A stretch of DNA of 44,186 nt from Patescibacteria group bacterium (GCA_029260985.1 JAJDCE010000123.1:1-44186), one strand, 5' to 3'. Numbered from the stretch's first letter, positions 4,084 through 27,935 are shown. Notes: generated from the sequence alone by a model not told the origin. Translations and numbers: made by a program.

Positions 4084-4749
4084 TTAAACAATCCTGATCT
4101 TTTTTTCCAACATGCTTATAAATCTTGCAGTCGATTCTTCAATATGCGTAACCAGCGCATTCTCCCCTCTATCTTTGAGTAAGTTGATGATCTGATCAAT
4201 CAAGACATATATCCTATTGGCCTGATCAGGCCTGAAAGCGCTTGGAGGCGGCAAAAGTTCTTTATTGAATATCCCTCTAAGTGCGCCTTCTACAGAGTCG
4301 CGGAAATACGTGGTATCAGCTCCTCCTTTCAGCTCCTCTAATTGTATTAACATCGCTTCACACATTACCGTAAAAGAATGAGGTTGAAGTACTTTATTGC
4401 ATTCTCCCCGTACCTCCTGACTTATTTCTTCTGATGAAACTGGTGTATCTATAAATTCCTGTAAGTCCAGTATGGTGTCTGGTGGACAATTTTTCATATT
4501 GCCCAACAGAGCTATCGTCGTGCGTATTATAGGCTTCAGTCTTTGAGTCAATTCAGGGTTCATATTCTGAAGCCTATGTCTAAAAAGCATAAAATTAGAA
4601 ATTTCACTCCTGATTTCTCCAGACAATAAGTTATAGTCATCAACTTCCTTTAGGTCGGGATTAATATTTTCTTCAAAACAAAACAGCCATTGAATGCCTG
4701 AATATTCAGCCGATGATATACTTCTTTGCGATGCGTCTGGGTTGGGCAT
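4084..4749 (-). CDS. Hypothetical helical protein (221 aa), orphan
   Basis: ATG start, 8 nt after the stop of the upstream ORF. No family motif recognised. Segment KPIIRTTIALLGNM resembles RPIVQRTIVMLGNN in the 42529-43626 product. Confidence 0.65.
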   Translation of the reverse strand: MPNPDASQRSISSAEYSGIQWLFCFEENINPDLKEVDDYNLLSGEIRSEISNFMLFRHRLQNMNPELTQRLKPIIRTTIALLGNMKNCPPDTILDLQEFIDTPVSSEEISQEVRGECNKVLQPHSFTVMCEAMLIQLEELKGGADTTYFRDSVEGALRGIFNKELLPPPSAFRPDQANRIYVLIDQIINLLKDRGENALVTHIEESTARFISMLEKKIRIV

Positions 4750-4757
4750 ATATAGTA

Positions 4758-5132
4758 TTAAATTCGATCTCTGGTTTCTACAGCGAGTTGACTAAGGGTT
4801 TTGGGAGATGTCACCTTCCTCACCATCTCCTTTAATGAAGGGTATTCTACTTCATTATCAGGTCCAGGCAGATCATAATCTAAAGTTTCATCAATCATTT
4901 CAAGAGCGGTACAAACATCCATGAGTAGTTTGTGGTCAAGCCTTGTAACTTCTTCAGGCCTAGAGCTGATCAGTTCAAATAAAAATTGAGTAAAGTCCAG
5001 CAAAACCATATCTGCTCTTTTGGGTATACTTTCAGCTGAATCGGTTTGTAACAATATGGGCATTATTTCAACCAGCTTATTGCTCCAGGCCACAAATTCC
5101 ATAGCTTCTGGTGGGGTTTCATTCAGGCTCAT
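4758..5132 (-). CDS. Hypothetical acidic helical protein (124 aa), orphan
   Basis: ATG start, 1 nt after the stop of the upstream ORF, which suggests translational coupling. No recognised motifs. Confidence 0.65.
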   Translation of the reverse strand: MSLNETPPEAMEFVAWSNKLVEIMPILLQTDSAESIPKRADMVLLDFTQFLFELISSRPEEVTRLDHKLLMDVCTALEMIDETLDYDLPGPDNEVEYPSLKEMVRKVTSPKTLSQLAVETRDRI

Positions 5133-5133
5133 G

Positions 5134-5502
5134 CTAGTCGATTATATCTTTTAAAACATGCTTAATTTCTATCCCTAGATCAGGATCAAACCTTTCAAGC
5201 CTTTTTAGCACCTCCTGAACCAGCTGGATAGCCTCCTCTTGATGCTTAGGTCCAGAGAGTTCAAAAATACGCACAAAAGGGTAACTGATAAAAAGGTCTA
5301 CAAGCCCATCTCTTAAGCCACGTCGGTTATGAATCGAAGTTTCACATCGTTCCAACTCTTCACACAGTTGTTCCAATGAAGTAATAAATTGAGGCCTTCT
5401 TATTCGGTCAGCACATAACCTTCTCACTCTTTCTGAGACTTTTGCTTCAGGGGTGGGGGAAAACTTTGGGTTATCGGATGGTGTATTCATGGCGTTTGAC
5501 AT
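5134..5502 (-). CDS. Hypothetical helical protein (122 aa), orphan
   Basis: ATG start. First of three tightly packed ORFs downstream of the ATP-grasp fusion gene. Confidence 0.65.
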   Translation of the reverse strand: MSNAMNTPSDNPKFSPTPEAKVSERVRRLCADRIRRPQFITSLEQLCEELERCETSIHNRRGLRDGLVDLFISYPFVRIFELSGPKHQEEAIQLVQEVLKRLERFDPDLGIEIKHVLKDIID

Positions 5503-5600: not shown

Positions 5601-7973
5601 TTATGCCGCCTCATCTTGCCGCCTCAGATAAGATGGCAGAAACAAAGGTGCCTTAAGACCTTTAACTTTCTTTGCAATATCCAGATCAGCCAGGTTGATT
5701 TTACCGATGTATAGATCTCGAAGGTCGCCGCCTTTTTGAATAAAATCCAGTATCTCCCGATAGCCTTTAAAGTAAACAAAATCTTTCGTGAAGGCTCCAG
5801 GCTTTGAAGTGTCCGAAAGTCCACGTTTAGCTTTTAAAGCGACTTTCCAGGCCCGATCGACACTGAACCCATGCTTAATAATCTCCGCGTAAACATCCGC
5901 AAAGGAGCCGTGCAATGCAGTGTAAATCCCCACAACCGAAGACGCAGGCCAGTATTTCTTTTCAGTCTCACTCGATTCAGTCCGCTCTTGGTTATAAACC
6001 GCGAGCCCCTCTTCAGTCATCAAATAGTCCGCCAAGCCCCGTTGAAAAATCTTATAGGGCTGCTGGCTACCGTTCATAGCCGTAAATACGTGGGTTTCAA
6101 TTTCATGTGCGATGGTTCCCTTAATCCTGTCCTCAGAAAACGTAGCCCCCTCCCGGAGCATTACCGAATTTTCCTTACCGGCAATCGCATCAGAAACCAT
6201 ATCCGCTTTAATTTTTACGCTCCAGCCTTTTAGTCCGTTGTCCTCAATCGCTTGTTCAAATAACTTCTTAGCCTCTTTGGTGCTTAGAATTTTTGAAGTG
6301 CTGGGGAAGCTCTCGGGCATAGATACGATTTCCTTCACTGCCTCCCGTAAAATATGCTGATCAGGCGCTCCATATAAATGAATTGATTTTGCTGTAAAAG
6401 AATCCGAACCTCTCACTTCTAATAATTCAATTTTTCGCTTAATTTCATCAACTTTTTTACGCCACAAAATTCCAATAGGAGAATCGGGATATTCGATACG
6501 CTTGAGACGTGCATAAAGATTATTGGGGTCAAATTTCAACGCATTGTATTCAAATTGAGGATTGTAGGTCGGATCGACTAGAAACTTATTGTGCTCATCC
6601 TTTAAATTGGTTGGCTTTAAGTGATTGAGCAGTCTGATTTCACCATCAATTGCCACGATTTCATCATCAATCTTCTGTAAATCATCGGCTGAAAAATGAC
6701 GCACAATATGAGCCACGCTGGAAGAGTCTTTGCCCGCTTTTTCAGCCGCCATATGTCTGGTGGGATCAATGAGAAAATTTCTAAGATCCCGCTGGCCGAT
6801 AAGCATTTTATATTTTTTACCCCTAAAGTTTTCCGTATCAACAACAGTCTGAATACGGCTCCCCGACAGGCTGAATTTACAATAGCCATCATCTAACTTA
6901 ATTTCTTCCGCTACCGATTGATCCAAAACCGATTTTTCAATAGTAGGATCCATCTGAGCGATGATTTTCTTATTCCCTTTTTTACCAATTACCTCAATCC
7001 GTTCCAGATTTCCGATCACGGGCTTTTGAGGAGTTTTTTCCTCATCTTTATCTTCGATCTTATGACCAAAAATATCCTGCGCAATCCGAACTCCCTTTTC
7101 AGGTGTCGCCACTTTTATTCCTTCAATTCTTTCCAGTCGTTTTCGTAAGGGGGCCATATTGGCAATTTGCACCGCAAGCCCGGCACGGGCATTGATTTCC
7201 AAGAGAATTGGACCGCTTTTATCCAGAGCAATATCAATAGCCGCAAAACCCAGGTTGGTGATTTGCTGCACTCTTGAGGTGATGAGAAGAATGTCATCCC
7301 AATGAGGAATTTTCGTACCTCGTACAGGGCCATAGCCCGGAACACTATCAATTTCTTTATTGTATTGAGTCACATGGGTCATTTCCCCTTTGGCAATATC
7401 AATTCCAACCGCAACCCCTCCTAAATGCACATTGGCCTTACCTTGTGACTCCTCGGTAGGTAGACGGATCATCGCCATCACCGGAATGAGATTGTGAGCT
7501 ACAATTCGTAAATCCGGTAACCCCTTATAAGACATCTTATTAAAAGGTTCAGGCGCTTCCAGTCGCTGTTCAAAAAAAGCAAAATCAGAAATATTAGCCA
7601 GTGAATAACGGCCATCTAGAATATCCTGAACATGCCGCTGCATTGCTTCAAGGCTTACAATATCACCATTTGGGCTCACAAAATTGCGCCCTTTCCGATC
7701 AGAAATCACCAAAATCCCTTCACCTCCATAACCGGAGTTTGGCTTAACAACAAATGAGTTGGGGAGTGTGTTCCAGTCAAAACTTTTTAACTCCTTTTTG
7801 TCCTGGATAGAACCAAAGAGTTTAGCCACAGGAATTCCTCGGGCCGATAGAAAATTTTTGGTTTTCATCTTACTATCCGCCATCATAATGGCTTTTTTTG
7901 GGTTATACGCTCTGATGTATTTCAGGCTCCGGGCGTTGATCCCGAGCAGACCTGGATTATGTAAAAACCACAT
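5601..7973 (-). CDS. Fusion protein: RimK-related (alpha-L-glutamate-ligase-like) ATP-grasp domain plus a DUF1704/QEGLA-motif (MATCAP-like) metallopeptidase domain
   Basis: 790 aa. N-terminal motifs: GINARSLKYIRAYNP, FVVKPNSGYGGEGILV, MIRLPTEESQGKANVHLGG, ILLEINARAGL. C-terminal motifs: HEIETH (plus-strand 6090-6107) followed by TEEGLAVYNQ. Confidence 0.75.
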   Translation of the reverse strand: MWFLHNPGLLGINARSLKYIRAYNPKKAIMMADSKMKTKNFLSARGIPVAKLFGSIQDKKELKSFDWNTLPNSFVVKPNSGYGGEGILVISDRKGRNFVSPNGDIVSLEAMQRHVQDILDGRYSLANISDFAFFEQRLEAPEPFNKMSYKGLPDLRIVAHNLIPVMAMIRLPTEESQGKANVHLGGVAVGIDIAKGEMTHVTQYNKEIDSVPGYGPVRGTKIPHWDDILLITSRVQQITNLGFAAIDIALDKSGPILLEINARAGLAVQIANMAPLRKRLERIEGIKVATPEKGVRIAQDIFGHKIEDKDEEKTPQKPVIGNLERIEVIGKKGNKKIIAQMDPTIEKSVLDQSVAEEIKLDDGYCKFSLSGSRIQTVVDTENFRGKKYKMLIGQRDLRNFLIDPTRHMAAEKAGKDSSSVAHIVRHFSADDLQKIDDEIVAIDGEIRLLNHLKPTNLKDEHNKFLVDPTYNPQFEYNALKFDPNNLYARLKRIEYPDSPIGILWRKKVDEIKRKIELLEVRGSDSFTAKSIHLYGAPDQHILREAVKEIVSMPESFPSTSKILSTKEAKKLFEQAIEDNGLKGWSVKIKADMVSDAIAGKENSVMLREGATFSEDRIKGTIAHEIETHVFTAMNGSQQPYKIFQRGLADYLMTEEGLAVYNQERTESSETEKKYWPASSVVGIYTALHGSFADVYAEIIKHGFSVDRAWKVALKAKRGLSDTSKPGAFTKDFVYFKGYREILDFIQKGGDLRDLYIGKINLADLDIAKKVKGLKAPLFLPSYLRRQDEAA

Positions 7974-7980
7974 ATTAATT

Positions 7981-8008
7981 TCAGATTTCAGATTTCAGAT
8001 TTCAGATT
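7981..8008. repeat. Heptamer tandem repeat (TCAGATT)x4, directly upstream of the ATP-grasp gene start
   Basis: Four perfect 7-nt units at 7981-8008. The gene's ATG is at 7973. Confidence 0.9.
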
Positions 8009-8046
8009 TTGTATTCAATTTAGCATTTATACATTTGACATTTGAT

Positions 8047-8074
8047 TCAGAAATCAGAAATGCGAAATGCGAAT
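8047..8074. repeat. Heptamer tandem repeat (TCAGAAA)x2 (TGCGAAA)(TGCGAAT)
   Basis: Four 7-nt units, partly complementary (GAAATC vs GATTTC) to the 7981-8008 array. The spacer between the arrays also shows ACATTTG x2. Confidence 0.85.
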
Positions 8075-8075
8075 T

Positions 8076-8110
8076 CTGAAGAATAATTTTCTCTGAAAAT
8101 TATTCTTCAG
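8076..8110 (-). terminator. Perfect 15-bp inverted repeat overlapping the stop codon of the 7TM gene; putative terminator or attenuator
   Basis: CTGAAGAATAATTTT (8076-8090), loop CTCTG, AAAATTATTCTTCAG (8096-8110). On the minus strand the stem is followed by an A/T-rich tract. Confidence 0.5.
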
Positions 8111-9605
8111 CGTGTTTCATCACCTCCCTAAACCGAATGTATTCAAATACCCGAAGGCCAGTCCATCGGCCCAGACCGAGATTCACTACAATAAGTAATA
8201 AAATGATCTCAGGATAACTCAAAATCAGATTCTGTAGGAATTGCCACTCAACCACCCAGTAACAAATCAGCGATACAATGGTGGTTTCAAGCATTAGTAG
8301 TACGGCGGCAAAGACCCCTTTTCCGCTTTGGGCGCTCACAAATTTTTCAGCCAGCGTCGTCATAATAAGCATCGGGAATACCGCGATAGTCGCCAGTTCA
8401 CTAACTCCCAAATAAGTAGCCAAAGCCAACATCAAAAGGAGGATCAAAGTCGAAATGGTAAAAACAATGGCAATACGCGGTATATGAAGCAGCCGTACAT
8501 GCATCAAGGCCTTCCGAAGTACTGCTCCGGTAAGAATGATAATAACCAAAATCAAAAGACCGAATTTAAGACCAAGGGCTAAAAACGACAAGGTGATAAT
8601 TGCTGGAGTATAAAGTCCAAAAGTTGTGATCCCAACCACCTGCTTTAAAAAAGAAATGATAGTAGCGATCACAGGTAGCATCAGAAGAAGTACAATCGTA
8701 TTACTTGGAATTCCCTGAGCCAACATGAAATTAACCAGGTATGAAATGGAATTCCACACACTGACACTCCGAGTGTCTTTATCAATAATCAGATATTCCG
8801 ACACCCCTACTTTCAGGTCATTAACAAATGCATCAGTGTCTTTAGCTTTCACTAAATCCTCTAATTTATGTTTTCGGGTCAGTACAATTTGCTTGGGCTG
8901 AACAATGTCAAAATTACTCTGCATAATACGCCCCACCGTTTTGAGATTTTCATTTGAGGTTACCACAATGGTTTTACCCTGAATATATTCCTGAATAGTA
9001 GGTCGCTCCCTCACTAAACGAGTAAGAGCATTGATCCCACTCCCACGATTCGTCCAGACCGCAATCGTATCCGCATTGCTGATCACATCCACTTGATCGG
9101 CCAGTTTTTTAGTCAGATTCTCTTCCGACAAGAAGGCGGTAGTGCTCTCATAGCTTTCAATAACCCGTATAAAGGTTCCTTCGTCTCTGGCTTTTTTTGT
9201 AAGATTATCAATGCTCTGCTTTTGCTCAGTAATATCTGTAAGAAGCAGAATCAGCTTTTCATAGACAAAAATATCCCGGGCAATCGATGAGGACTCAGTG
9301 CCCTGATCCACTTTTAAAGTGACAAGATACTCACCAGGTTCAGAAAACGAATGAACCACTTCAACTCCCGTCTTTGTTTCAGCCCCATCTCCAAAATCCC
9401 ATGTGTAGGTAGCCTCAATATCTTCTGCAGGCAGAAATGATTGGGAGGCATCCAGAATAATACTCTTATCAACTTGCACAATGCTGTCCGCATTGATCAC
9501 CGCCCGAATATCATTGAGATCAAACGTTACCGCCGCCGAAGCAAACTGTGGCAGAAGAAGTAAGGCCGTGAGAAAGGAAAGGAAAAACTTTTTCATAATA
9601 GTCAT
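8100..9605 (-). CDS. Secreted PKD-domain protein with a C-terminal 7-TM module (7TM_transglut-like)
   Basis: 501 aa. Signal peptide LLLPQFASA. PKD motif ATYTWDFGDGAETKTGVEVVHSFSEPGEYLVTLKV. About seven hydrophobic helices from residue ~300 (VVGITTFGLYTPAIITLSFLALG...). Ends ...KHAEE. Confidence 0.7.
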   Translation of the reverse strand: MTIMKKFFLSFLTALLLLPQFASAAVTFDLNDIRAVINADSIVQVDKSIILDASQSFLPAEDIEATYTWDFGDGAETKTGVEVVHSFSEPGEYLVTLKVDQGTESSSIARDIFVYEKLILLLTDITEQKQSIDNLTKKARDEGTFIRVIESYESTTAFLSEENLTKKLADQVDVISNADTIAVWTNRGSGINALTRLVRERPTIQEYIQGKTIVVTSNENLKTVGRIMQSNFDIVQPKQIVLTRKHKLEDLVKAKDTDAFVNDLKVGVSEYLIIDKDTRSVSVWNSISYLVNFMLAQGIPSNTIVLLLMLPVIATIISFLKQVVGITTFGLYTPAIITLSFLALGLKFGLLILVIIILTGAVLRKALMHVRLLHIPRIAIVFTISTLILLLMLALATYLGVSELATIAVFPMLIMTTLAEKFVSAQSGKGVFAAVLLMLETTIVSLICYWVVEWQFLQNLILSYPEIILLLIVVNLGLGRWTGLRVFEYIRFREVMKHAEE

Positions 9606-9640
9606 TAATTTGTGTAGGCATTCTATCAGAAATTACGAAC

Positions 9641-9661
9641 TTAGTCCCTAGTCCTTAGTCC
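9641..9661. repeat. Heptamer tandem repeat TTAGTCC/CTAGTCC/TTAGTCC
   Basis: Three 7-nt units in the 59-nt spacer between the VirD4-like gene stop (9665) and the 7TM gene start (9605). Confidence 0.85.
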
Positions 9662-9664
9662 TAA

Positions 9665-12211
9665 TTAGATAATTCCAAGTCGAGCTTCAATTTCCTGATC
9701 CACAAACATCTTTTTTCGTCCGTATTTCATTCGTGAATATTTCTTTAAAATCTCCGCCATTTTATCGCTTCCTTGAGGGTCCCAAATTGTCTTGAGAGAA
9801 AAGGGCCTTGAAGTGGTATTGTTTATATTCAATTTGATATAAGCGCTATAGTTGGCAATTCCCAAAATATCCTGTTGCGATAGTAAGGGGGCATATTCTT
9901 TTGCAAGATATTCCGCGTCATCCGCACCCACCTTAAAACTAAGCATGGTACCCACGTTACCAAACACCGCGTCGCGCACTCTTGTATCATCTTTACCACT
10001 CGGTGTTTTAGTCAGTTGCGCAATATACTGATGCGCCATGATGAGCGAAAGGCGGTACTTACGGGCTTCCGATAAAATTGAGGCGAAGGTATCAGTGGCA
10101 AAATTCTGAAATTCATCCACATACATATAAAAGTCTTTTCGTTCTTCTTTAGGTATCTCTTGCCGGCCCATAGCGGCCATATTCACCTTATTAACAAAAA
10201 TCAGTCCTAAAAGCTGAGCATTTACATCGCCAATTTTACCTTTCGAAAGATTCACCAGAAGAATCTTCTGATTATCCATAATGTCTCGTATATTAAAGGC
10301 GCTTTTGGGCTGACCAATAATGTTACGAATCGTGGTATTGGTGATAAACGGACCAAATTTAGAACTGAAATACGGGATCATTTCTTGTTTTTCACGCTCA
10401 CCGGTGTTGGCATATTCATGATCCCAGAACGACTTAACCACCGCGTTGCTCACTTTCTCGAGCTTATATTTGCGGAATTCATCGTCCACAAAGATTCGGG
10501 GAACATCAATGAGTGTCGCCCCTTCATCTTCATCTTCCATCAGGGTCAAACAGGCATTCCGAAAGTAATGCTGGATACGAGGCCCGAAGATTTCATCTCC
10601 AAACAATTTGATAAAGATTTCCATCGCATCTAACGAGGCCCGATCTCTCTCCTCCGGCGTATGAGCTTCCAATAAATTAAGCCCCATGGGCCGGTCAGCA
10701 TCTGACGGATCAAATACCACAATGTCTTTGGCACGCTCTTTTTGTACAATTTTAAGAGTATCTTCCACCAGGTCGCCATGCGGATCAATCAGACAGATAC
10801 CATCTCCATTCCAAATATCCTGACGAGCCATGTAACTGAGAAGAACTGACTTACCGGAACCGGATTTCCCGATAATATACTGATGCCTCGTCCGGTCATC
10901 GGCCATAATACGCACTTCCCGCTCTTCACCCCGGTAAACATTCTTCCCAATCACAACCCCTTCCTGCGGAAGGTCAGTCGGTGGCGCAAGTACTTTGTAC
11001 GCAAGCCATTTAATAATCGGCACATTGTTATACCGCGAATCCGGGAAGTGGATGACGGAGGCAAGTTCGGTTTGAGTGAACAAGTTCTGCTTATGAAGAA
11101 TTCCAGGTATTCGTTTACGGAACAGATACTTCATCAAAGGATTATTGACTCGATCCATTGGGAAAATTCGTCGCCCCTGAAAAGCGTTTAAATAAGCATC
11201 GTGATAAATGCTAAACGCTACATTCAAATTATTTGTAATTTCAACCGCCCGCTGAGTCGTGTCAGCAACCCCAAATACCCGAATAGACGTATCAAAACCT
11301 ACTTCACCGGCTTTTTCACCAATTTTTTTATAGGCCTCTTCCTTAGCCGCCAGCATACGAATATAGGCATCACCGGAGCTCGCGCCAGGCGCACTGGTTG
11401 CCCCTTTGCCGATAGGCGCCATGAATCGGATTGCATTGATCAGTAAGCCCAGGATCGGACCTATCAATGGAATAGGTATTTTAATCGGCAATCTTTCTTT
11501 TTTAAAGAGCGCTGTACCCATCCGTTCGGTTTTGCGTCTCCACTTATTATTCGCCACTGGGTTAATAATCATCTGCATACAGGCTTTCTCACCCGTTTTA
11601 AGCTTAGAAAGCACATTGGCCATGTCATTCAGCGGATCCTGCTCCATCACTTTATAAGTATGAATCGGGAACCAGAAGTCCTTTTTGGTATACATAAAAT
11701 AGCCTCGCACCTTCTTGCCCTTTTCAAACAATTCATAAGATTTATCCAGAATTTTTATATCCGCATCTTTGTAAAACGAAGTAACCTGTTTTTCCAGTAT
11801 GTTTTGATAAAATTTATCAGCGACTACATAAAAACCGAGTTCATGATTTTCCAAAAATAACTCAAATGAGATGTTATCGGCCTGCCAGATCTTGGTTTTG
11901 ATCGTATTCCACAAATTTAGCTCCCGAATTTCATATAAAGCCCTGTAAAGCTGGGCCATAATAGCCACCTTTTCCTTAAAATCCTTCTCCGTCCGCTGTT
12001 CCTGATCCATCTTGGAGTCACTCCGAGGCAGCGTCACTTTCATATAAATCAGGTTTTTAGCCGATTTATGAGAATAGATAAGCCTTGCGAGCTTAAATAA
12101 ATACTTCAAACCATACCAAGACACAAAAACGATAATAAGCGTCGTGAGTCCATGGTTTTTCAACCAATCAAGTACTAGAGGGACGTATTGTAAGTATTTT
12201 TCAAAATCCAC
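9665..12211 (-). CDS. VirD4/TraG/TraD-like (FtsK-HerA superfamily) ATPase with an N-terminal membrane anchor
   Basis: 848 aa, with a GTG start at 12211. TM helix LTTLIIVFVSWYGL. Walker A GKSGSGKS. Walker B and TraG-D_C-like segment FYMYVDEFQNFATDTFASILSEARKYRLSLIMAHQYIAQL. Confidence 0.75.
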   Translation of the reverse strand: MDFEKYLQYVPLVLDWLKNHGLTTLIIVFVSWYGLKYLFKLARLIYSHKSAKNLIYMKVTLPRSDSKMDQEQRTEKDFKEKVAIMAQLYRALYEIRELNLWNTIKTKIWQADNISFELFLENHELGFYVVADKFYQNILEKQVTSFYKDADIKILDKSYELFEKGKKVRGYFMYTKKDFWFPIHTYKVMEQDPLNDMANVLSKLKTGEKACMQMIINPVANNKWRRKTERMGTALFKKERLPIKIPIPLIGPILGLLINAIRFMAPIGKGATSAPGASSGDAYIRMLAAKEEAYKKIGEKAGEVGFDTSIRVFGVADTTQRAVEITNNLNVAFSIYHDAYLNAFQGRRIFPMDRVNNPLMKYLFRKRIPGILHKQNLFTQTELASVIHFPDSRYNNVPIIKWLAYKVLAPPTDLPQEGVVIGKNVYRGEEREVRIMADDRTRHQYIIGKSGSGKSVLLSYMARQDIWNGDGICLIDPHGDLVEDTLKIVQKERAKDIVVFDPSDADRPMGLNLLEAHTPEERDRASLDAMEIFIKLFGDEIFGPRIQHYFRNACLTLMEDEDEGATLIDVPRIFVDDEFRKYKLEKVSNAVVKSFWDHEYANTGEREKQEMIPYFSSKFGPFITNTTIRNIIGQPKSAFNIRDIMDNQKILLVNLSKGKIGDVNAQLLGLIFVNKVNMAAMGRQEIPKEERKDFYMYVDEFQNFATDTFASILSEARKYRLSLIMAHQYIAQLTKTPSGKDDTRVRDAVFGNVGTMLSFKVGADDAEYLAKEYAPLLSQQDILGIANYSAYIKLNINNTTSRPFSLKTIWDPQGSDKMAEILKKYSRMKYGRKKMFVDQEIEARLGII

Positions 12212-12308
12212 TTAGTTTTAGTTTGGAGTCGGGAGTTTGGAGTCGGGAGTTTCGGTTGTAAGTTGTGTATTTACAACTCCGAACTCCCTTCTCCGAACTC
12301 CTAACTAA
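12212..12308. repeat. ~97-nt imperfect long hairpin built from 14-nt tandem duplications
   Basis: GGAGTCGGGAGTTT x2 (12225-12252), central hairpin TTGTAA-GTTGTGTAT-TTACAA (12256-12276), complementary CTCCGAACTCCCTT/CTCCGAACTCCTAA (12277-12304), outer TTAGTT/AACTAA. It abuts the GTG start of the VirD4-like gene. Confidence 0.8.
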
Positions 12309-12444
12309 ATTAATCTATATATTATAGCATTTTTTCTCTCTGAAAACAAGGGTTATTATCTCCGAAACCTCCATTCGACCTGTCGGAACTTGCCAAAACA
12401 ATGGTTCCTCAGTTATTATCCCTTACTGACTGACACTAAAAACC

Positions 12445-21958: not shown

Positions 21959-23464
21959 ATGCGAAAAATTCCTGCGACCATGGCCACTCAGCATCCAGAT
22001 AATGCGAGTGCATGTTATTGGAACCAGAAAAAATTCATCAATTCACTCGATGAAGTTGAAGAGTGTTACCGAATGTTCCATGAACTCAAGTGCACTGAAT
22101 ATATGTGGGATTGGGAGGGTAAATTTGTCGATGAGGCGGTGGTCGAAAAGCTATATCAGCGGTACCACGACTTCTTCAGGAAAAATAAATTAGGGAAAGA
22201 TGTATTTCTTACTTTCCGTATTCCTAATGTCGATGAAGAAAGTGGATTCAGATTGGCTCGTGCCTATATGGCCATTTTGACAGCCGACGATTTGGCGCAT
22301 GAGGTTGGCATGAATACTCCTCCGATTTTTGAAGCAATCCTGCCCATGACCAAAAATGCTAAGCAGCTCATCAACGTTAAAAAGACCTTCCATCAAGTCG
22401 AGGAATTTAAAAAGAAAGCCTTTAACACCAAACGAAAAACCCCTCATGAATTCAACGTCATTCCGCTAATTGAAGGTGTTGAATATTTAACCAGCGCCGA
22501 TAAAATCCTGAATGAGTACGTTGATGGCTGTAAAGCTGAATTTGGTAAAAAACCGGAATATTTGAGGCCATTCATCGCACGTTCAGACCCAGCCATGAAC
22601 GCCGGTCTGATACCAGCAGTGCTTTCATGCAAAATCGCTCTACAACAATTTTACGAAGTGGGTAAGAAGCACAACATCGGCATTTATCCGATTATCGGCC
22701 CTGGCTGTCTTCCGTTCCGAGGAGGCGTCAATCCCGAAACCATCAAAAAAACCATTCAGGAGTACAGCGGGATTCGGACCATCACTATTCAATCCGGCTT
22801 TCGTTACGACTACCCTCTTCCAACGGTCAAAAAAGCGATTAAATATATCGAAGAAACACTGCCGAAACTCAGCTTTTCACCACTGACAAAAAAAGAGATT
22901 AATGACATCCATCAGGTCAACAAAGTTTTTGGAGGATATTACAAATCCACTGTTGAACGGGCGGCAAAACTCATCAATCAAATTGCCAGCCAGGTACCCG
23001 GCCGTCGAGAGCGAATGTTACACATCGGTTTGTTTGGGTATTCGCGTGGTATCGGCAAAGTCAGCCTTCCTCGGGCGATCAAATTCACAGGCTCACTCTA
23101 CTCAATCGGCGTACCTCCCGAATTCATTGGAATGGGACGAGGGCTAAGAGACGCGATGAAAGACGGTACGCTAAAAACAATTGAAAAACATTATCTTAAC
23201 CTCAGAGCTGACTTCATTCATGCAGGTAAATACCTTAACAAAGAAAACTTAAACGAACTCGCCAAAAAATATCCAGTTTTTCAGGAGATTAAGGAGGATG
23301 TTCAGGAAGTTGAAAACTATTTGCGCCTCGAACTAGGTCCTATCAAAACAAAGCATTTTATTTATCGTAATCTTGCTTCGTCAATTTATTTACGCCTCAA
23401 GGAGAAGGAGGATTTTTCTAGTGAGCTAGAGGAGGCAGCTTCGATTCGGAAAAGTTTAGGGTAA
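21959..23464 (+). CDS. ppcA: Archaeal-type phosphoenolpyruvate carboxylase (PEPcase type 2)
   Basis: 501 aa, against ~900 aa for the bacterial enzyme. N-terminal IPATMATQHPDNA is the hallmark of the atPEPC family. Confidence 0.8.
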   Translation: MRKIPATMATQHPDNASACYWNQKKFINSLDEVEECYRMFHELKCTEYMWDWEGKFVDEAVVEKLYQRYHDFFRKNKLGKDVFLTFRIPNVDEESGFRLARAYMAILTADDLAHEVGMNTPPIFEAILPMTKNAKQLINVKKTFHQVEEFKKKAFNTKRKTPHEFNVIPLIEGVEYLTSADKILNEYVDGCKAEFGKKPEYLRPFIARSDPAMNAGLIPAVLSCKIALQQFYEVGKKHNIGIYPIIGPGCLPFRGGVNPETIKKTIQEYSGIRTITIQSGFRYDYPLPTVKKAIKYIEETLPKLSFSPLTKKEINDIHQVNKVFGGYYKSTVERAAKLINQIASQVPGRRERMLHIGLFGYSRGIGKVSLPRAIKFTGSLYSIGVPPEFIGMGRGLRDAMKDGTLKTIEKHYLNLRADFIHAGKYLNKENLNELAKKYPVFQEIKEDVQEVENYLRLELGPIKTKHFIYRNLASSIYLRLKEKEDFSSELEEAASIRKSLG

Positions 23465-27010: not shown

Positions 27011-27087
27011 TGGTGGAGATGAGGGGACTTGAACCCCTGACCCCTTGCATGCCATGCAAGTGCTCTAGCCAACTGAGCTACATCCCC
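27011..27087 (-). tRNA. tRNA-Ala(GGC) with encoded CCA
   Basis: The reverse complement folds as GGGGATG/TA/GCTC-AGTTGGCTA-GAGC/A/CTTGC-ATGGCAT-GCAAG/GGGTC/AGGGG-TTCAAGT-CCCCT/CATCTCC/ACCA. The G3:U70 identity pair is present. Confidence 0.93.
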
Positions 27088-27858: not shown

Positions 27859-27935
27859 GGGCGGTTAGCTCAGTTGGCTAGAGCGCGTCATTGACGTTGA
27901 TGAGGTCAGAGGTTCGACTCCTCTACCGCCCACCA
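27859..27935 (+). tRNA. tRNA-Val(GAC) with encoded CCA
   Basis: GGGCGGT/TA/GCTC-AGTTGGCTA-GAGC/G/CGTCA-TTGACGT-TGATG/AGGTC/AGAGG-TTCGACT-CCTCT/ACCGCCC/ACCA. Confidence 0.93.

Follow-up and report, generated by a model that had tools for sequence, protein, structure and literature searches.

We analysed a stretch of 44,186 nucleotides from a Patescibacteria group bacterium (GCA_029260985.1, JAJDCE010000123.1:1-44186; hereafter the window) and describe a two-gene module on its minus strand. One gene, at 5601-7973, encodes a 790-amino-acid (aa) enzyme in which an ATP-grasp amino-acid ligase is joined to a MATCAP/DUF1704-type carboxypeptidase; the other, directly upstream, encodes a seven-transmembrane (7TM) protein that ends in Glu-Glu. 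On comparative grounds we propose that the ligase would extend the -EE tail of the 7TM partner and the MATCAP domain would trim it, with a catalytically dead retropepsin domain between the two acting as a dock that holds the tail without cutting it, a proposal that we consider evenly balanced between right and wrong. To judge from the loci compared here, the module is conserved in Gracilibacteria-class bacteria of the candidate phyla radiation (CPR), namely Peregrinibacteria and SR1. What appears to be new is the assignment of the dead retropepsin, the link to the rloABC genes of Pseudomonas, and the invariant -EE tail of the partner together with its co-variation with the state of the peptidases. 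The features of the enzyme gene are these:

5601-7973, minus strand: three-domain enzyme gene (ATP-grasp ligase, pseudo-retropepsin, MATCAP carboxypeptidase); 790 aa in a single ATG-to-stop open reading frame (ORF)
7062-7973, minus strand: predicted RloC/RimK-like ATP-grasp amino-acid ligase domain, aa 1-304 (PF14397, TIGR02291, Foldseek)
6753-7028, minus strand: pseudo-retropepsin, aa 316-407, with the RimB/RloA (PF05618) fold and lacking the catalytic D-T/S-G-A (hhalign, hidden Markov model, AlphaFold2, Foldseek)
6942-6953, minus strand: M-D-P-T codons (aa 341-344), in the aligned columns of the catalytic D-T-G-A
5604-6686, minus strand: predicted MATCAP/DUF1704-type gluzincin carboxypeptidase domain, aa 430-790 (PF08014, TIGR02421, phmmer, Foldseek)
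6090-6107, minus strand: HEIETH metal-binding and catalytic motif, aa 623-628 (aligned to HEIGTH of 7z5g)
6000-6017, minus strand: TEEGLA motif, aa 653-658 (the 'EEG' motif), which supplies the third metal ligand, a Glu; identical in human MATCAP

An earlier note on this DNA had described one uninterrupted 790-aa ORF with two domains, a ligase followed by a carboxypeptidase. The ORF was found intact and both domains were correctly assigned, but a third, dead RimB/RloA-type retropepsin domain lies between the two halves. The AlphaFold2 (AF2) model of the enzyme contains three well-folded modules (mean predicted local distance difference test, pLDDT, 84.7). When the full model was searched with Foldseek, the top PDB match was human MATCAP, followed, for the N-terminal domain, by RimK, ArgX/LysX, Ddl and cyanophycin synthetase. 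The enzyme has no signal peptide and is on that account predicted to be cytoplasmic.

More than 500 full-length homologous genes were identified, and over 120 protein clusters with 49-81% identity show the full-length architecture without a break. The three-domain fusion was present in all 80 of the best species-level genomes (the best 80 of 535 confirmed matches), nearly all of them metagenome-assembled genomes of Peregrinibacteria, Peribacteria or Gracilibacteria, with complete chromosomes among them; the ORF is unbroken in the complete genomes CP064978.1, OZ246396.1 and CP006913.1. Representatives of the fusion chosen at 50% identity reach down to about 28% identity, and Absconditabacteria/SR1, with Ca. 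Vampirococcus lugosii and SR1 RAAC1 among them, hold a sister clade that is 28-33% identical. The possibility that the long ORF is an artefact of assembly or gene calling, merging two genes, is therefore negligible for practical purposes: the same three-domain ORF recurs in hundreds of independent Peregrinibacteria and SR1 assemblies from different studies, and the inter-domain region is itself conserved and forms a confidently folded domain. Public databases already list the fusion by generic names (DUF1704 or 'tyrosine/phenylalanine carboxypeptidase domain-containing protein'; 'alpha-L-glutamate ligase-like protein/TIGR02421 family'), and each of its three building blocks comes from a family characterised elsewhere. 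A literature search, which did not cover Iyer et al. 2009 or Landskron et al. 2022, found no paper on the fusion, on the function of bacterial DUF1704/QEGLA/TIGR02421 proteins, or on MATCAP combined with ATP-grasp. The former is said to be the source of the Pfam families discussed here, and the latter reportedly describes the MATCAP structure.

Profile searches gave significant matches for each half of the enzyme, and bore out the earlier assignment of residues ~1-290 to the RimK-related, 'alpha-L-glutamate-ligase-like' ATP-grasp group. The N-terminal half matches Pfam ATPgrasp_ST (PF14397) at aa 15-284 (E 7e-61; model positions 2-277 of 278) and NCBIfam TIGR02291 at aa 4-304 (E 7e-77; model positions 7-315 of 317). 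The motifs on which that assignment had been based were located at aa 11-25 (GINARSLKYIRAYNP), 74-89 (FVVKPNSGYGGEGILV), 168-186 (MIRLPTEESQGKANVHLGG) and 256-266 (ILLEINARAGL). The domain shares 37% identity (E 2e-58) with RloC of Legionella, which comes from a canonical rloABC operon on a plasmid. In an alignment of 51 homologs, K77, R156, R170, N181, H183, D247, E259 and N261 are invariant, as are G81, G83, G84, G86 and R263. The Mg/ATP motifs (the Lys of the K-P-x-x-G-x-G-G-x-G loop and the D...E-x-N triad) align with those of RimK 7qys, and the ATP- and Mg-binding apparatus of the ligase is thus intact at the level of motifs. Kinship with RimK came from the fold search, where the domain matched RimK (5zct, 4iwx, 7qys) and ArgX/LysX (3vpb, 5k2m). 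By sequence, the RimK family model TIGR00768 gave a local match only (E 3e-10), and phmmer of the ATP-grasp half against the PDB gave only E ~1 to RimK. Matches to TTL were weak (E about 1e-3 to 1e-5) and were seen in relatives only.

The C-terminal half matches Pfam MATCAP (PF08014) at aa 469-786 (E 5e-57; 193.9 bits against a cut-off of 27) and NCBIfam TIGR02421 (QEGLA) at aa 436-787 (E 1.5e-57). The DUF1704/QEGLA motif pair that the earlier note had recognised is present, with HEIETH and TEEGLA spaced 30 aa from start to start. The note's statement that this family includes eukaryotic MATCAP agrees with direct comparison to human MATCAP structures, by phmmer (7z5g, 7z5h and 7z6s; E 1e-17) and by Foldseek (7z5g; E 1.5e-13, template-modelling score TM(target) 0.69-0.71); pLDDT in this domain exceeds 90 in the AF2 model. 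HEIETH aligns over HEIGTH, so that E624 pairs with E281 of human MATCAP, and H623, E624, H628, E655, G656, L657 and A658 are invariant in the 51 homologs. The E281Q and E281A forms of the human enzyme are catalytically dead (PMC13269789, PMC10499314), and the role of the EEG motif has been described (PMC10499314). MATCAP/TMCP enzymes cut after -EE, strictly need the penultimate Glu, and also strip Glu and polyglutamate (PMC10499314; PMC13269789). With both HExxxH and EEG intact, the domain is predicted to be an active Zn/Mn carboxypeptidase of the MATCAP type.

The middle domain was assigned through relatives in which PF05618 is recognisable and through structure, rather than by a direct Pfam match. 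Pfam gave no match to the middle region at E up to 10, a Pfam scan of the middle region of 27 family members gave only faint matches to gag-asp_proteas and Asp_protease_2 (E ~0.04), and a profile search of the PDB with the middle region gave none. Relatives of about 430-480 aa, which in the search of representatives span query positions 6-407 only, do carry a recognisable PF05618 'Zn_protease/RimB-like' domain at the middle-domain position, as do some longer relatives. The window's middle-domain family aligned with these PF05618-bearing relatives by hhalign at a probability of 99.6% (E 6e-24), and a hidden Markov model built from them matches the window protein at E 2.6e-14. Their profile in turn matches 9G58 and 9G59 (E about 1e-7), Lpg0085 (2pma) and Ddi1; 9G58 and 9G59 are structures of RloA (PMC12239564). 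A separate AF2 model of aa 316-407 (pLDDT 92.5) gave its best Foldseek matches, at about E 1e-5, to the DDI1 RVP domain, RloA2 (9g59), RloA (9g58) and Lpg0085 (2pma), and matched retroviral proteases as well.

The catalytic D-T/S-G of this fold is gone from the window protein, which reads ...AQMDPTI... where relatives read ...AKIDTGA..., and the column of the catalytic Asp is variable (D/E/N/T) across the fusion family. In aligned columns D[TS]G was lost almost exactly where the metallopeptidase is fused, being absent from 166 of 171 MATCAP-fused proteins (kept in 5) and kept in 103 of 112 relatives without MATCAP (Fisher p about 1e-59, uncorrected for phylogeny). The C-terminal strand of the fold, G-x-R-D-L-x-x-F-L-I-D-P, is nearly invariant. 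Conservation of this strand after loss of D-T/S-G indicates that the fold was retained without its chemistry; by these residues the domain is not an active member of PF05618, and it is probably under selection as a pseudo-enzyme adaptor. It is internal to a protein predicted to be cytoplasmic, and does not have the N-terminal signal peptide of the RloA subgroup.

The partner gene has the following features:

8100-9605, minus strand: 7TM partner, 501 aa (PF14402, PKD, NF052267), comprising a signal peptide (aa 1-26), a PKD ectodomain (aa 35-107) and RloB-type 7TM_transglut helices (aa 297-478)
8103-8171, minus strand: predicted cytoplasmic C-terminal tail GRWTGLRVFEYIRFREVMKHAEE, the proposed acceptor or docking tail, with the Glu-Glu codons at 8103-8108

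The partner matches PF14402 (7TM_transglut; E 9e-33) and PKD (E 8e-15). The RloB model NF052267 matches the 7TM part only (model positions 312-507) and not the ectodomain, which carries PKD in place of an inactive transglutaminase. Identity to Legionella RloB is 30% over 195 aa (E 4e-27), and this alignment extends to within four residues of the partner's end, taking in the juxtamembrane E-x-x-RF helix. The approximately 190 extracellular residues between PKD and the first transmembrane helix (aa 108-296; window 8718-9284) match no family. By hydropathy and the positive-inside rule, the ectodomain is placed outside the cell and the C-terminal tail in the cytoplasm. A scripted check found the 7TM gene directly upstream of the fusion gene in all 79 loci with upstream sequence, and the stop of the former often overlaps the start of the latter. 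A further association occurs on plasmid CP007061.1 of Halobacterium sp. DL1 (locus L087, 4164-5918), where an unannotated 584-aa ORF next to transposase genes joins a 7TM_transglut-like domain, at its N-terminus, to an RloC-like ATP-grasp domain with 37% identity to the window ligase. In this fusion the ligase directly follows the end of the 7TM domain, independent support for a physical partnership.

The partner ends ...RFREVMKHAEE (tail peptide ...YIRFREVMKHAEE), a short basic tail with Glu-Glu at its end. Among Peregrinibacteria, 65 distinct tails were collected, or 72 by a looser extraction, and 72 of 72 end in EE, EEE or EEEE. Position -3 is variable, with at least nine different residues. 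An EE ending is otherwise rare in these loci, occurring in 3 of 553 further long ORFs (0.5%). The SR1 loci with a neighbouring 7TM gene agree in all four cases (-DSEEE, -DGEEE, -GTEEEEE and -GEGDEEE), the terminal Glu run being kept despite a different gene order, genetic code 25, and a linker of changed sequence and length.

A different acceptor has to be considered here. The enzyme could be a RimK-like modifier of an unlinked protein, S6 or some other protein with an acidic tail, for which the 7TM protein serves only as regulator or membrane anchor. RimK and RpsF provide a precedent (PMC12239564), and the syntenic gene for ribosomal protein L25/TL5 encodes a long, acidic, low-complexity tail. 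We judge this highly improbable. L25 tails are acidic but not consistently -EE (that of the window ends ...EEGGEK, and of 8 distinct tails just 2 have EE at the end), and L25/TL5 was rejected as an alternative acceptor on these grounds. No other frame of at least 50 aa in the 44-kb window ends in EE, and strict adjacency and co-variation both point to the 7TM protein. The L25/TL5 gene itself lies at 755-1444 on the plus strand; its acidic C-terminal extension (EGAEGEEG...) is encoded by 9/18/27-nt tandem repeats at 1319-1427, and the tail is variable in relatives, two of which end -KKEE.

Co-variation was examined by a metagenome scan seeded with two-domain relatives, which returned 80 loci. 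In about 70 of these a 7TM gene is followed by a gene for an ATP-grasp plus DTGA-retropepsin protein, and all of their 7TM tails are basic. Only three scan loci carry the three-domain MATCAP fusion, and the partner tails there are -HIEE, -HVEEE and -HLEEE. Overall, an -EE(E) tail accompanies MATCAP and a lost retropepsin site in 78 of 78 lineages. With an intact retropepsin no such tail is seen (about 73 of 73), L144 being a further locus that is ambiguous. The distribution fits a rule in which the -EE tail goes with MATCAP present and the retropepsin site lost. The two-domain relatives show some variation of their own: in loci L092-L167 many 7TM partners are bare 7TM_transglut proteins of about 215-220 aa with no ectodomain, and L093, L098, L108, L115 and L165 have an extra stand-alone ATP-grasp gene downstream.

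We propose the following sequence of events. The ligase would spend ATP on activating the free alpha-carboxylate at the partner's C-terminal -EE, and would then add one or more amino acids, Glu being the most likely by homology to RimK and RloC. The MATCAP domain would remove the added residues singly, back to the encoded -EE, as its eukaryotic relatives do on tubulin. The dead retropepsin would keep its acidic-peptide groove or its dimer interface, and would hold the tail, or dimerise the enzyme, beside both active sites without cutting. The outcome would be an ATP-dependent, reversible mark, written as tail length, on a surface-exposed 7TM protein. Its output would probably lie in cell-envelope or osmotic homeostasis by analogy with rlo phenotypes, and this is the weakest step. 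Support for the mechanism comes from the obligate pairing with the 7TM gene, the predicted cytoplasmic location of the tail, its conservation and co-variation, and the precedents of RimK, TTL and MATCAP/TMCP. The view of the earlier note, that a ligase and a C-terminal trimmer act on one chain, fits everything found here and has gained a candidate substrate in the -EE tail of the 7TM protein; both activities stand as predictions.

Several observations weigh against this mechanism, which is comparative throughout. Three loci that combine MATCAP with an intact DTG retropepsin have basic tails: L156, with a separate MATCAP gene and a DTGQ retropepsin (tail ...RRYLKS), and L175 and L176, three-domain fusions that keep DTGA (tails ...VKKS and ...KKHRA). 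These three loci rule out the simpler rule that MATCAP alone predicts an EE tail. Locus L144 combines DSG with -EEE. The Proteobacterial RloB tails are not acidic (Legionella -KARS, Aeromonas -PGKDK), and the Halobacterium fusion leaves its 7TM domain without a free C-terminus, which means that the ancestral ligase could do without the tail as acceptor. The state that unites EE tail, MATCAP and dead retropepsin may stem from only one or two evolutionary events, and the large co-variation counts are therefore not phylogenetically independent. Three SR1/Vampirococcus loci lack a 7TM gene within 9 kb. Finally, both NCBIfam matches fall under their curated cut-offs (TIGR02291, 258.6 bits against 314.2; TIGR02421, 195.5 bits against 338.65), which makes the ligase a subfamily relative rather than the curated equivalog, and the MATCAP domain something other than the proteobacterial equivalog.

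Gene content varies among the loci. In a Patescibacteria subclade (L175, 5448-12453; L176, 1870-10678), expanded operons contain a PKD-7TM gene and the fusion with intact DTGA, and add two or three ATP-grasp genes of the RimK/GSH-S/Ddl type; L176 also encodes a second, stand-alone MATCAP-family protein of 575 aa with no obvious HExxxH. This content suggests multi-step peptide building. In SR1 loci L168, L170, L171 and L173, the fusion gene and the 7TM gene are not contiguous; the one or two intervening genes vary, and encode a GNAT acetyltransferase, a YdjC-like protein, or a RimK-like ATP-grasp together with a Mur-ligase family protein. In one representative (P0190), ATP-grasp, retropepsin and YdjC are fused.

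The main rival to tail modification is the synthesis and export of free polyglutamate. Here the ligase would make free poly-alpha-glutamate or a short peptide, the 7TM protein would export or anchor it, and the MATCAP domain would limit or recycle it from the C-terminus; the -EE tail would not be extended, but would resemble the product and serve as a docking or auto-inhibitory motif, by which the enzyme is tethered to its membrane partner via the dead retropepsin or the pocket of the MATCAP domain. RimK has been solved as a 'poly-alpha-L-glutamate peptides synthetase' (5zct), and Rlo genetics suggest that RloB and RloC make a product that periplasmic RloA must remove (PMC12239564). The basic-tailed relatives and the Halobacterium fusion indicate that the ligase can work without a free acidic 7TM terminus, and the operons with two or three extra ATP-grasps and a second MATCAP resemble peptide-building pathways. 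However, 7TM_transglut has no recognised transporter signature, and a cytoplasmic peptidase would make the synthesis futile unless it were regulated. A free polymer also leaves unexplained why it is the tail terminus that is invariant, rather than an internal acidic patch, and why the terminal Glu number from two to five. We regard this alternative as possible, if rather unlikely.

The SR1 gene order bears on another alternative, in which the ATP-grasp domain is an amidoligase for an envelope polymer or small molecule, amidating a carboxylate on a sugar-linked or peptidoglycan-related precursor that is handled by the 7TM protein, while MATCAP trims the added residues. The Pfam name of PF14397, 'sugar-transfer associated ATP-grasp', would suit such a role, as would the GNAT, YdjC-like deacetylase, Mur-ligase and RimK-like genes found between the SR1 fusion and 7TM genes, the relative that fuses ATP-grasp, retropepsin and YdjC, and the rlo/RloB mutants, which show hypo-osmotic lysis, ampicillin sensitivity, altered cell shape and altered vesicle production. 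Yet the characterised members of the MATCAP/TMCP and RimB/RloA families all act on Glu-rich C-termini of proteins or peptides, the operon in Peregrinibacteria consists of just two genes, neither of them for a sugar enzyme, and the co-variation of -EE is left unexplained. An amidoligase therefore seems improbable to us.

The spacer between the two genes of the module has a structure of its own:

7974-8110, minus strand: intercistronic spacer, 7TM gene to fusion gene, with a hairpin and heptamer repeat arrays

A perfect 16-bp hairpin at 8076-8110 embeds the Ala-Glu-Glu-stop codons of the 7TM gene, and the spacer carries inverted heptamer arrays, with (AATCTGA)x4.6 at 7978-8009 stopping 5 nt short of the ATG. 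Folded as RNA, the spacer has an energy of -38.9 kcal/mol (z = -4.35). Close relatives (spacers of L004-L015) have hairpins of like plan and different sequence (z -1.9 to -6.9), two of which also pair with GAAGAATAA; distant relatives have overlapping genes in place of the hairpin spacer. The hairpin may be an intercistronic attenuator, a processing site or a translation-control element. Tandem repeats of 7 nt or 14 nt are present in other spacers of this string of genes too. A second, strong hairpin lies at 12212-12330, upstream of a VirD4-like gene, and is formed by inverted arrays of AGTTTGGAGTCGGG x2.4 against AACTCCG x4.6 (-41.7 kcal/mol, z = -6.5). The spacer at 9606-9664 contains CTTAGTC x3.3 (repeats at 9640-9662) with no significant fold (z = -0.45). 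This genome apparently contains a class of hairpins, lying between genes, that are made up of heptamer arrays.

The surroundings of the module are those of an ordinary chromosome, with genes for L25, DUF3048, QueA, RecJ, CarA, TIM, TruB, a Mur ligase and phosphoenolpyruvate carboxylase. Directly upstream of the 7TM gene, an 848-aa VirD4/TraD-like type IV coupling ATPase is encoded at 9665-12211 on the minus strand (domains T4SS-DNA_transf, TrwB_AAD_bind and TraG-D_C, with DUF8128 in relatives). In CP064978.1 this gene is broken into three ORFs, and it was rejected as a component of the module because its position is conserved only in relatives of at least 68% identity. Between the fusion gene and queA are three packed, co-directional ORFs on the minus strand (5134-5502, 4758-5132 and 4084-4749; 122, 124 and 221 aa). 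Searches of Pfam, NCBIfam and PHROG assigned them to no family, the sole match being TnpC_regulator at 0.007, and no homolog was found in about 80 related loci, in which the fusion gene is as a rule followed immediately by queA. The three ORFs were likewise set aside as components, and look like a lineage-specific insertion. The phosphoenolpyruvate carboxylase, in this CPR genome, is of the archaeal type (PF14010, E 3e-143; 21959-23464, plus strand). Two tRNA genes were found, tRNA-Ala(GGC) at 27011-27087 (minus strand) and tRNA-Val(GAC) at 27859-27935 (plus strand).

Taken at its broadest, tail modification of the 7TM partner would amount to a prokaryotic 'C-terminal tail code', in which the -EE terminus of a receptor-like 7TM protein is written by the ligase, erased by MATCAP, and read or held by the dead retropepsin. 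We offer this tentatively, with more doubt than confidence. If true, it would provide the first membrane-protein substrate for tailing of the RimK/TTL kind, would tell what Rlo-type systems act on, and would supply a plausible bacterial antecedent of the eukaryotic MATCAP/TMCP peptidases of tubulin tails. The patchy distribution of MATCAP/TMCP among eukaryotes fits acquisition from bacteria. So far the MATCAP family is known functionally only from tubulin; the locus gives it a conserved bacterial context of putative writer and eraser, which bears on the origin of the eukaryotic tubulin-tail enzymes. For the Rlo systems, a CPR variant stripped to two genes, with a partner that bears an invariant -EE like that of RpsF and tubulin, offers a concrete candidate substrate. 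The module is also near-universal, chromosomal and envelope-associated in Peregrinibacteria and SR1, including the predatory Ca. Vampirococcus, groups in which very few regulatory systems have been characterised.

Comparison with known systems places the module more closely. In the LysW/LysX-ArgX systems, too, an ATP-grasp enzyme of the RimK family couples an amino acid to the Glu that ends its dedicated partner protein. However, LysW is a small soluble Zn-ribbon carrier on which the attached amino acid is then metabolically processed, whereas the window operon is without biosynthetic enzymes. The tubulin tail cycles, in which TTL/TTLL are opposed by VASH, MATCAP and CCP, follow the same logic of a ligase and a carboxypeptidase acting on an acidic -EE tail. 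TTL adds Tyr to the -EE of tubulin. The likeness of the ligases is by analogy only, and the eukaryotic writer and eraser are separate proteins, while in the window they occupy one chain with a membrane protein as the proposed target. The carboxypeptidase domain itself is close to MATCAP1/TMCP1 and TMCP2 (KIAA0895L, KIAA0895) in sequence (E 1e-17) and fold (TM 0.7), sharing the HExxxH, TEEGLA and AKRG..DTS.PG.F.KD.VY motifs; it differs in belonging to a host without tubulin or microtubules and in being fused to a ligase and a pseudo-protease.

The earlier note knew of nothing comparable characterised in bacteria. That statement is out of date, given the RimK/RimB pair for glutamylation and de-glutamylation and the 2025 genetics of rloABC (PMC12239564). 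RimK adds, and RimB removes, Glu at the -EE C-terminus of RpsF (PMC12239564). The window module resembles this pair in setting a putative ATP-grasp writer against a putative peptidase eraser on a C-terminal Glu tail, in a candidate acceptor ending Glu-Glu, in a retropepsin of family PF05618, and in having RimK as the nearest solved ATP-grasp fold, listed after MATCAP by Foldseek. It differs in its low sequence similarity to RimK proper, in the inactive state of its RimB-like domain, in a candidate acceptor that is the membrane protein of the adjacent gene and not RpsF, and in a predicted eraser that is an exo-acting metallopeptidase fused to the writer.

The closest likeness in gene organisation is to rloABC of Pseudomonas and other Gammaproteobacteria, which encodes the retropepsin RloA, the 7TM protein RloB and the ATP-grasp enzyme RloC and has been analysed genetically (mBio 2025; PMC12239564). 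Strains without the three secreted RloA proteases die under hypo-osmotic conditions and have envelope defects, and these phenotypes are suppressed by deletion of rloB or rloC; RloA and its cytoplasmic homolog RimB cleave polyglutamate, which binds in the grooves of both, and the physiological substrates of the Rlo system are stated to be unknown (PMC12239564). The two systems share a homologous ATP-grasp enzyme and 7TM_transglut partner, adjacent co-directional genes, and a module of retropepsin fold. They differ in that RloA is secreted and active, whereas the window retropepsin is internal, predicted to be cytoplasmic, and dead; no other retropepsin-like ORF, such as a separate secreted RloA-like protease, was found in the 44-kb window or in the related loci inspected. 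In addition, the window ligase is fused to a MATCAP metallocarboxypeptidase, the partner ectodomain is PKD in place of the inactive transglutaminase of RloB, and the partner ends in -EE, in contrast to the -KARS of Legionella RloB and the -PGKDK of Aeromonas RloB. Judged by its sequence relationships, then, the window module is a derived ATP-grasp plus retropepsin system of the Rlo/Rim type, in which MATCAP, by its intact motifs, is now the only peptidase predicted to be active.

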